Shown: positions 29,296 to 31,120 of the stretch, in pieces | Layout of the letters: every line of letters begins with the position of its first letter | Position numbering within the stretch: the stretch's first letter is position 1 | Assembly: GCA_964016885.1 (NCBI GenBank) | Contig: OZ024751.1 | Location: 32,984,001-33,048,000, forward strand | Direction of reading: 5' to 3' | From: Eledone cirrhosa | Taxonomy: Eukaryota | Length of the DNA: 64,000 nucleotides | Position numbers and translations under genes: made by a program | Notes under the pieces: generated by a model | What the model saw: the letters and a program-made list of their open reading frames with translations, nothing else | What the model was told of the DNA's origin: nothing | The model's database searches: none

Positions 29296-30176
29296 TATAT
29301 ATATATATGTATATATATATATATATATATATATATATATATATATATATATATATATATTAATATATGTATATATATATAAATATATATATATATATAT
29401 ATATATATATATATATATATATAAGTATATATATATATATATATAAATATATATATATATATATATATATATATGTACATATATATATATATACATAAAT
29501 ATATATATTAATATATATACATATTTATATATATATATATATATATATATATATATATATATATATATTTGTATATATATATATATATATATATATATAT
29601 ATATATATATATATATATATATATATAATATATAGAGAGAAACACCCAGATACATGCGGACACATACATATATATGAATATATTCACACATATCCCTGTG
29701 TTAGTGATTTCTTCTCTGTTTATAATGTAGTATATATATATACATATTTGTATATATATATATATATGCATATATACATATATGTACACATATTTATTTA
29801 TTTACCTATGTATTAATTTATATTTATTATATATAATTACACATACACACACATATATATATACATATATTATTTATTTACCTATATATATATTTATATA
29901 TATATATGCATATATATGTATATATATTTATTTATATATATATGTATATATATATATTCGTATATATATAAATATAAACTCTAAGCTGTTATTTTAATAT
30001 ATATATATATATATATATATATATATACATATATATATATATATATATATATATATATATATATATATATATATATATATATATATATATATATATATAT
30101 ATATATATATATATATATATATATATATATATATATATATATATAATATAAGATCAAAAGATGGTTAAAGGAGTTC

Positions 30177-30253
30177 CATGTATTTTATTATGCGCATTTC
30201 AAAAACAAACATCATCATGCAATAATATTTGTGTTTTCATCAGATAAAACAGG
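30177..30253 (-). ncRNA. Minimal type-I hammerhead ribozyme (family A, inverted left arm)
   Basis: Reverse-complement copy of the motif at 30338-30414 (tcatcag at 30237-30243, tttc at 30197-30200); core intact. Confidence 0.82.
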
Positions 30254-30337
30254 AGAACATGATATGAAGGCTAAAAAATAGTGGATAGTGCAGTTTTAAA
30301 TCAACACAAGTGTTTTTTAGCCTTCATATCATGTTCT

Positions 30338-30414
30338 CATGTTTTATCTGATGAAAACACAAATATTATTACATGATGATGTTTGTTTTTGAAATGCGCA
30401 TAATAAAATACATG
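30338..30414 (+). ncRNA. Minimal type-I hammerhead ribozyme (family A, right arm)
   Basis: catgttttat-CTGATGA(30348-30354)-aaacacaaatattatt(acat)gatgatgtttgttttt-GAAA(30391-30394)-TGCGCA-TA-ataaaatacatg. Stem I is ttttat/ataaaa plus catg/catg; stem II is long with G-U pairs; stem III is palindromic; predicted cut after 30402. Confidence 0.85.
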
Positions 30415-31120
30415 GAACTCCTTTAACCATCTTTTGATCTTATATTATGTATACTCCAGTCCTACAAACTGTAGAGTGCTTCTTATCCGATATCTGCATT
30501 GCTTTATTGTACTACAATAAAACTCACCTCCTACATTATATATATATATATATATATATATATATATATATATATATATATATATATATATATATATATA
30601 TATATATATATGTCTATATATGTGTATGTAAGTACGTCTGCAAATGTATAAGTGTGAACACCTATCAGAAAGTTTCCCTGTTAAAATCAATTCATACATT
30701 TCTCTGTTACATCTCCATAAATAGCCGAGTCTTCTTTCACAGTGGTTTATATATTCGCTGCAAAATAGGGTCCATTACAGGTGCTAATCGCAATTGGACA
30801 TTTCTATTTCATATATTTAGTAAAGAGCAATGCTATTATGTTATGGCCAGTATTAGTCATAATTATTATATAGTTAGGAATGGTGATAACGTTGAAGGTG
30901 TATGACCTAGCGTTTAGTACTGCGGTCATAATGTATCTTTCACACCTGGACCGGGATATATGTTGTGCTTTTCAGCAAATCTCTTCATTTCTCAGTGCTC
31001 CAGCACACTTGAAAAGTACACAAATACACACACACACACACATATATATATATATATAATTATTTATACGTATATATATATATATATATATACGTATATA
31101 TGCTTATATATATATATATA

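Follow-up and report, generated by a model that had tools for sequence, protein, structure and literature searches.

Two head-to-head copies of one unit of about 260 nt make up the insert at positions 30143 to 30536 of the window (the whole 64,000-nt stretch of DNA analysed here). The unit is probably the pseudo-LTR of a Penelope-like element (PLE) together with its tail, and the arrangement likely arose by two priming events on the element RNA. A first-pass annotation had read the locus as a young Penelope-like terminus that targets TA repeats, and this is supported by the layout of the insert, by its ends in (TA)n and by the junctions found in further copies. The two hammerhead ribozyme motifs of the insert, one per strand, are most likely a by-product of the inverted structure.

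Structure of the insert

The following features were assigned to the insert, its flanks and a second copy in the window:

30002..30142: left (TA)n flank, which closes a long array rich in TA
30143..30306 (-): unit copy in inverted orientation and without the tail, running from the putative internal start to about 2 nt from the fixed 5' end; it includes 30279-30304, which belongs to the stretch formerly described as a loop
30181..30251 (-): type I hammerhead motif with C3 at 30243 and a predicted cut after 30189, carrying the family-majority letters
30305..30536 (+): sense copy, 5'-truncated at 30305-30307, overlapping the inverted copy by 2 nt, with its 3' end in (TA)n
30340..30410 (+): type I hammerhead motif with C3 at 30348 and a predicted cut after A30402
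30394..30401 (+): 8-nt palindrome, predicted to form helix III between two molecules in an unconstrained co-fold
30446..30453 (+): TA-like patch, the putative internal start of the inverted copy, judged from the flank pairing and the loose ends
30453..30477 (+): predicted hairpin of 4 bp, a 2-nt 3' bulge and 4 bp, with which the 83-nt tail (30454-30536) begins
30537..30621: right (TA)n flank
24239..24474 (+): second copy, with a 43-nt inverted piece (24239-24281), a 1-nt overlap and a sense copy that starts inside stem I

The near-perfect inverted repeat described earlier was confirmed, as 30143-30278 can pair with 30313-30448 at 134 of 136 positions (the exceptions are 30220/30371 and 30252/30339), and so was the position inside (TA)n, which flanks the insert on both sides. 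A duplex of 136 bp is predicted from the fold-back arms, and the fold of 398 nt reaches -219.9 kcal/mol (z = -34 against 100 shuffles). What had been taken for a 34-nt loop is the junction of the two head-to-head copies, without any spacer. Before 30305 the letters match the reverse complement of approximately 30284-30298 in all three runs with contigs (X1, X4 and X7), and the "loop" is thus the inverted copy, extended in the 5' direction and overlapping the sense copy. Two substitutions and one small indel distinguish the arms. At A30339 and A30371 the insert has letters that are rare or private, the alternative letter accounting for 99.7% and 99.4% of the summed depth in X1; since both are rare or private, the differences between the arms cannot separate one template from two.

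The second copy ends at the same 3' base, as had been noted, and 24281-24478 is 96.5% identical to 30345-30540. Its hammerhead is not intact, because only 3 bp of stem I are left and the pair at 10.1-11.1 is replaced by A.G. Its inverted piece starts at the position matching 30373, not 30453. In both window copies, extra 5' bases are present only in the tail-less arm and the tail only in the other arm. Neither arm can therefore be a plain copy of the other, because each holds sequence that the other lacks.

A frame of 30 codons from 30447 was rejected as the start of an open reading frame, as G30449 is replaced by T in 26% of the depth. A Pol III origin is unlikely, given a T6 run near the 5' end.

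Hammerhead motifs

Each strand carries a complete type I motif, in agreement with the first-pass annotation; the pair at 10.1-11.1, however, is A-U and not the usual G-C. In both motifs the core is intact, stem I has 8 bp, stem II has 16 positions including a single C.U mismatch, and stem III is replaced by a palindrome of 8 nt. A descriptor scan of both strands of the window gave three type I motifs, and a pattern modelled on the two of the insert also gave three matches in the window, compared to none in each of 100 shuffles. The third motif, at 9080-9151 (-), with its pattern match at 9085-9146, belongs to a different family.

The comparison with Rfam that had been suggested for the motifs did not return a hammerhead among all 25 matches on the element (E up to 10), and no hammerhead family was present among 150 listed of the 283 matches for the window. 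The listed matches on element and window were only hairpin and snoRNA look-alikes below the gathering scores. Since Rfam detects none, the assignment as hammerhead rests on the core, the stems and the comparison between families. The proposed dimer type is consistent with the predicted co-fold, which is a double hammerhead of -47.5 kcal/mol compared to 2 x -17.7 kcal/mol. In the monomer, the active fold is predicted to have a helix III of 2 bp and to lie about 4 kcal/mol above the best fold. Single hammerhead stretches fold no better than shuffles (z from -0.6 to -1.4), and the same holds for the tail regions (z from -1.2 to +0.5).

Compared to the family at 9080-9151, the core shows no difference and stem I hardly any, and six pairs are changed on both sides, four of them in stem II and two in the palindrome. 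This number of two-sided changes was reached by none of 500 shuffles and slid structures gave at most three; the covariation refers to two families only, from which the structure itself was drawn. Within the family, all four variants above 3% in the motif lie in loop II or keep the pairing and none lies in the core (P ~0.012). In a diverged subfamily, 6 of 17 positions are changed in the 5' side of stem II and the loop, while core and stem I are unchanged at all 13 positions (Fisher P = 0.024). The five paired changes in stem II of this subfamily prove little, because 13 of 16 transitions there keep the pairing. Judged from these sequence comparisons, the structure of the hammerhead is conserved. 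In PLE hammerheads G10.1-C11.1 is described as highly conserved and cleavage as poor even in dimers (PMC4209133). With A-U at 10.1-11.1 and the poor cleavage of PLE hammerheads even as dimers, the activity of the ribozyme is likely low.

The match at 9080-9151 (-) has G-C at 10.1-11.1 and a stem I of 11 bp, and it ends about 40 nt before (TA)n. No open reading frame was recognised upstream of it.

Junctions and end points of further copies

Positions 30279-30540 were compared with the contigs of three of the 20 listed runs that share some of the element words (3115 contigs of X1, 4 of X4 and 26 of X7); four of the 20 runs had half or more of the words. X1 may be the sample of the window itself, and the summed depth was not treated as a copy number. 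Among the X1 contigs, 861 show at least 99% identity, 1313 show 95-99%, 828 show 90-95% and 113 less than 90%, and from this spread the family appears to be repeated and fairly young.

In all of the best 15 of 41 X1 joints the inverted arm is left at 30303-30306. The sense copy is entered at 17 different positions from 30338 to 30505 (best 15 of 41 joints and best 12 of 37 rows). The letters at the joint are TA in 8, T in 2, TAT in 1 and TATCT in 1 of the best 12 of 37 rows, and all 12 begin with T. The probability of such a pile-up at one 5' point by chance is roughly 1e-6, in a survey that covered the best-supported junctions near 30306, within roughly 17 positions. As the pile-up is far from even, the template has a fixed 5' end. 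Of the 17 junction positions, six are located past 30453, in the manner of classical twin priming.

Loose ends which run into (TA)n occur, among those listed, after 30453 in 32 contigs and after 30536 in 15. At the ribozyme cut site 30402/30403, neither a junction nor a loose end was found among those listed for X1. The left (TA)n flank pairs with 30446-30453 at eight of eight positions, including one G.T wobble.

Two side observations were made in these contigs. Among the loose ends listed, 39 X1 contigs leave the unit after 30435, at another short end followed by (TA)n, and represent a subfamily whose 3' end differs. One X7 contig of 151 nt continues for about 90 nt beyond the match, upstream of 30305, and might reach the parent element.

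A predicted bulged hairpin at the putative internal start site

The tail begins with a small predicted hairpin with a bulge (30453-30477). A descriptor of this hairpin finds six matches in the window, compared to a mean of 0.115 and a maximum of 2 in 200 local shuffles. Five of the six lie 61-84 nt upstream of (TA)n, and 12.7% of positions would be expected within 100 nt. The descriptor was written after most of the matches were known; the match at 4493 and that of the second copy were not used for it. The inverted arms of two window families without hammerhead end at most 6 nt from the foot of the hairpin. In the copy at 31367 the outer stem is broken, and it is not a match of the descriptor. 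The predicted hairpin is weak (-4.0 kcal/mol), and another fold competes with it in context.

Compared by eye, the full hairpin is present at the terminus of three of six Hydra consensi in File S7 of Craig et al.; Hydra-1_Crog has a variant of it and two of the six lack it. Hydra-1_Ajap carries the hairpin twice, and the Hydra hairpins have G-C in place of A-U at the base. Six half-motifs of 8 letters occur at 26 places in the supplement of Craig et al., four of which are these Hydra matches, and among the other 22 places there is one full motif, inside the 3' UTR of Naiad_Mmer. The hairpin likely sets the place where copying starts, and it may bind the protein.

Further hairpins of this type were observed in the window. 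The sixth match, at 4493-4512 (+), has a (TA)n array on one side and an (AC)n array on the other, and an inverted arm was not seen there. A GC-richer fold-back family at 31233-31430 and 47707-47899 (+) has no hammerhead in its arms; its layout is (TA)n, arms of 55-61 nt with differing centres, a hairpin tail of about 70 nt and (TA)n. At 47918-48133 (-), arms of 61 nt, also without hammerhead, surround a microsatellite and are followed by a hairpin-bearing tail and (TA)n. A similar hairpin tail with other upstream sequence is located at 29161-29297 (-), where the opposite strand carries a hammerhead-like stretch that is broken (29226-29297).

Proposed origin and alternatives

The published anatomy of PLEs includes an inverted, 5'-truncated copy, a one-sided tail, a bias for (TA)n, and a hammerhead and a start site in the pseudo-LTR. 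The insert shares the type I hammerhead with palindromic helix III as well as the variable 5' truncation with an adjacent inverted copy. A one-sided tail is also present, but measures 83 nt compared to the quoted 30-40 bp. Insertion into (TA)n is also common to Naiads and is therefore not diagnostic for the Hydra clade; Naiads are described as having no canonical hammerhead, and here the full motif is present. Endonuclease-bearing PLEs are further characterised by direct, partly tandem pseudo-LTRs around an open reading frame, and the Hydra clade by the RT/EN motifs DKT, RWK and CxCX5C, with no CCHH. Because this hammerhead is not of the published Hydra type, we file the element as Penelope-like, working like Hydra.

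In the proposed mechanism, the GIY-YIG/RT protein of a (TA)n-targeting, Hydra-like element would nick both strands of a TA repeat. One nick would prime at the RNA's 3' end (30536) and give the tailed sense copy with its variable truncation point. The other would prime at an internal position, the TA-like patch where the bulged hairpin has its foot (30453), and copying would run from there to the 5' end of the RNA, in the simplest case the site in the pseudo-LTR where transcription starts; the Penelope transcript is reported to start inside the upstream pseudo-LTR. The two cDNAs would then be joined with an overlap of 0-3 nt. Where the arms overlap, the unit would have been read twice, via the upstream repeat of a tandem RNA, via a second RNA or by re-reading after displacement. 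The hammerhead may act in the parent RNA, by slow cleavage and as a dimer. At this insert it would have been duplicated passively and be silenced by the antisense arm. The pairing with (TA)n may be incidental, because the start of reverse transcription by the Poseidon protein is not homologous to the DNA that is cut. As template, a full-length element and a short non-autonomous RNA appear about equally probable; a full-length parent fits as well as the short RNA because its upstream pseudo-LTR would supply the second unit and the fixed end.

No PLE domain was found by Pfam among 121 window frames, and the insert itself is too short for a reverse transcriptase with a GIY-YIG endonuclease. The 121 selected frames gave only a piece of a LINE-type reverse transcriptase and four weak matches below the cut-off, of which one falls on the LINE frame. 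Near the insert, these frames showed no recognisable host exon, and the pattern of the element had no match in the metagenome, viral and prokaryote genome collections.

It is also possible, and we put it forward tentatively, that the genome is host to a group of miniature, non-coding elements which parasitise TA-targeting PLEs. These would have unrelated sequences and share a hairpin of about 25 nt which is bound by the reverse transcriptase/endonuclease and determines where reverse transcription starts internally. Fold-backs would then routinely be written by double priming on short RNAs whose 5' ends are defined, with the hammerhead as an optional passenger. If true, this would explain the inverted-pseudo-LTR-plus-tail shape of PLEs and represent a large source of long dsRNA in what is probably a cephalopod genome.

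Other routes to the same structure were considered. A PLE origin by fold-back self-priming of the cDNA or of an antisense RNA, or by later trimming of a perfect palindrome of two copies through a break at its centre, is rather unlikely. Self-priming on an antisense template has been proposed for head-to-head PLE palindromes, and a plain fold-back of the cDNA cannot give each arm private sequence. In the centre-break revision of palindromes, a break at the axis would likewise shorten one arm to a variable extent and spare the other; it does not predict that the tail-less arm is the more complete one, as seen in both window copies (n = 2), and would still require two cDNAs and a fixed 5' end. 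Decidedly improbable is a non-LTR retrozyme, in which the hammerhead releases monomers from a tandem repeat, and these are circularised and put back into the genome by PLE enzymes. Retrozymes are reported as derivatives of PLEs, and the unit of about 260 nt, its low GC content and its type I hammerhead fit the class. However, a head-to-tail joint was found neither in the window nor among the best 15 of 41 joints, the ends run into (TA)n, and the cut site 30402/30403 is free of ends among those listed.

That the host has selected this locus as a two-way ribozyme or as a dsRNA element is very unlikely. Both motifs are intact and a long duplex is predicted; against this, the insert belongs to a young repeat family, read-through RNA is predicted to exclude the ribozyme fold, host exons were not recognised nearby in the frames analysed, and other fold-backs of the window have no hammerhead in their arms. 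With its short, non-coding, repeated sequence, its near-perfect inverted repeat and its TA context, the insert resembles a DNA-transposon MITE that inserted at TA and whose arms are hammerhead-like by chance. We regard this as highly improbable, as the repeat is not terminal (the ends of the insert match at 13/30 and 12/30 positions) and left ends and centres vary among copies (17 junction positions). The first-pass annotation had named fixed terminal inverted repeats as the mark of a MITE, and their lack favours the PLE reading. Inverted chimeras are a known type of artefact, and the exact junction of the window is not among the listed junctions of another run. Nevertheless, an artefact of assembly or library is extremely improbable, since the arms differ from each other, similar junctions occur in X1 contigs at a depth of 30-160, and two other window families share the anatomy. 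Double priming on PLE RNA remains the preferred explanation.

Read-through transcripts

It had been assumed that a transcript crossing the insert in either direction carries a working ribozyme. The predicted folds argue against this, as the hammerhead fold costs 94.5 kcal/mol (+) or 99.9 kcal/mol (-) compared to the long hairpin. The antisense arm is transcribed first, whichever the direction. According to these models, a free ribozyme could form only in an RNA that starts at the centre or inside an arm. No RNA run is present among the 20 listed runs (15 studies) that share some element words. If such inserts are transcribed, they would give near-perfect duplexes of 55-136 bp, which would likely be substrates for editing or small RNAs.

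Setting of the insert in the window

The surrounding DNA is TA-rich and SINE-rich. An abundant SINE-like family of about 190 nt, with copies 85-94% alike and some tandem pairs, is present at the following positions:

1560-1935, 2691-3042, 18015-18208, 20521-20718, 35448-35660, 39184-39541, 53845-54232 and 60433-60655: SINE-like copies of about 190 nt

A SINE-like copy with a direct repeat of 15 nt on each side (24023-24238) is located directly left of the second copy. At 34288-35145 (-), an open frame of 286 aa encodes a LINE-type reverse transcriptase (RVT_1, E 4e-6). The named match of highest identity is a protein of Octopus vulgaris (72% over 60% of the query), which is compatible with an octopod host but is no proof of it. 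Further inverted repeats other than microsatellites, with arms of 33-60 nt, were found at 36469-36538, 23704-23849 and 22034-22150.

Relation to published work

The twin ribozyme arrangement is already published for PLEs and is itself ordinary for them. Inverted truncated copies, tails, the (TA)n bias and hammerheads on both strands of a Hydra element are published as well. The value of the insert lies in the mechanism by which the inverted ends of PLEs arise. The origin of these inverted ends and of the tails is named as unsolved in the literature. The literature searched contained neither this family nor its fixed 5' end nor the common hairpin at the putative internal start; Repbase, Dfam and the O. 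vulgaris repeat library may contain them. The main text of Craig et al. does not contain "hairpin" or "stem-loop", and the letters of the element's hammerhead do not occur in the supplement consulted (PMC8557442). The family, short and repeated, combines two 3' ends and one fixed 5' end with numerous junctions and a candidate recognition hairpin, and thereby makes the mechanism testable.

Comparison with known systems

The closest resemblance in layout is to PLEs of the Hydra clade (Penelope-13_HM, Hydra-1_Crog, Hydra-2_Ajap and Hydra-2_Amil; PMC8557442), which share insertion into (TA)n, a hammerhead near the 3' end followed by a TA-rich patch and a tail and, compared by eye, the bulged hairpin at the termini. 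For Penelope-13_HM, the published listing gives a 5'-inverted copy and a hammerhead on each of the two strands (PMC8557442). In contrast to this clade, the window element has a stem II of 16 positions, A-U at 10.1-11.1 and a fully palindromic helix III. Its hammerhead differs from every tabulated Hydra entry, in which helix III starts with AC and stem II is short, and from that of Hydra-1_Obim (PMC8557442). The minimal hammerheads of PLE pseudo-LTRs (PMC4209133) are likewise of type I, dimer-dependent and palindromic at 15.2-16.2 and loop 3, and in Schistosoma pairs on opposite strands are described 100-700 bp apart (PMC4209133). Compared to the hammerheads described there, the window motif has no G10.1-C11.1, no extra nucleotide after position 9 and a stem II about twice as long.

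For the mechanism, a close comparison is Poseidon PAc (PMC11167929), in which two start points of reverse transcription also bound the tail, the internal start lies at a stem-loop and the target is AT-rich. The Poseidon PAc protein nicks and extends both strands, and cleavage by the hammerhead is dispensable for insertion (PMC11167929). Its start site is AC-rich, lies in the open reading frame and is not homologous to the target, whereas the window site is TA-like and followed by a tail of 83 nt. Twin or dual priming of L1 (PMC2837659) also uses internal priming of the second strand and gives an inverted 5' piece, but leaves a deletion between the pieces, while in the window family an overlap of the arms is frequent and the internal site is a recurrent one. 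Non-LTR retrozymes (PMC7229834; bioRxiv 10.64898/2026.07.22.740005) and non-autonomous Chlamys elements such as MRC1 are short, non-coding, PLE-dependent units as here, and retrozymes carry type I hammerheads like the window element. Retrozymes and these Chlamys elements are arranged head-to-tail, whereas the window copies are head-to-head.
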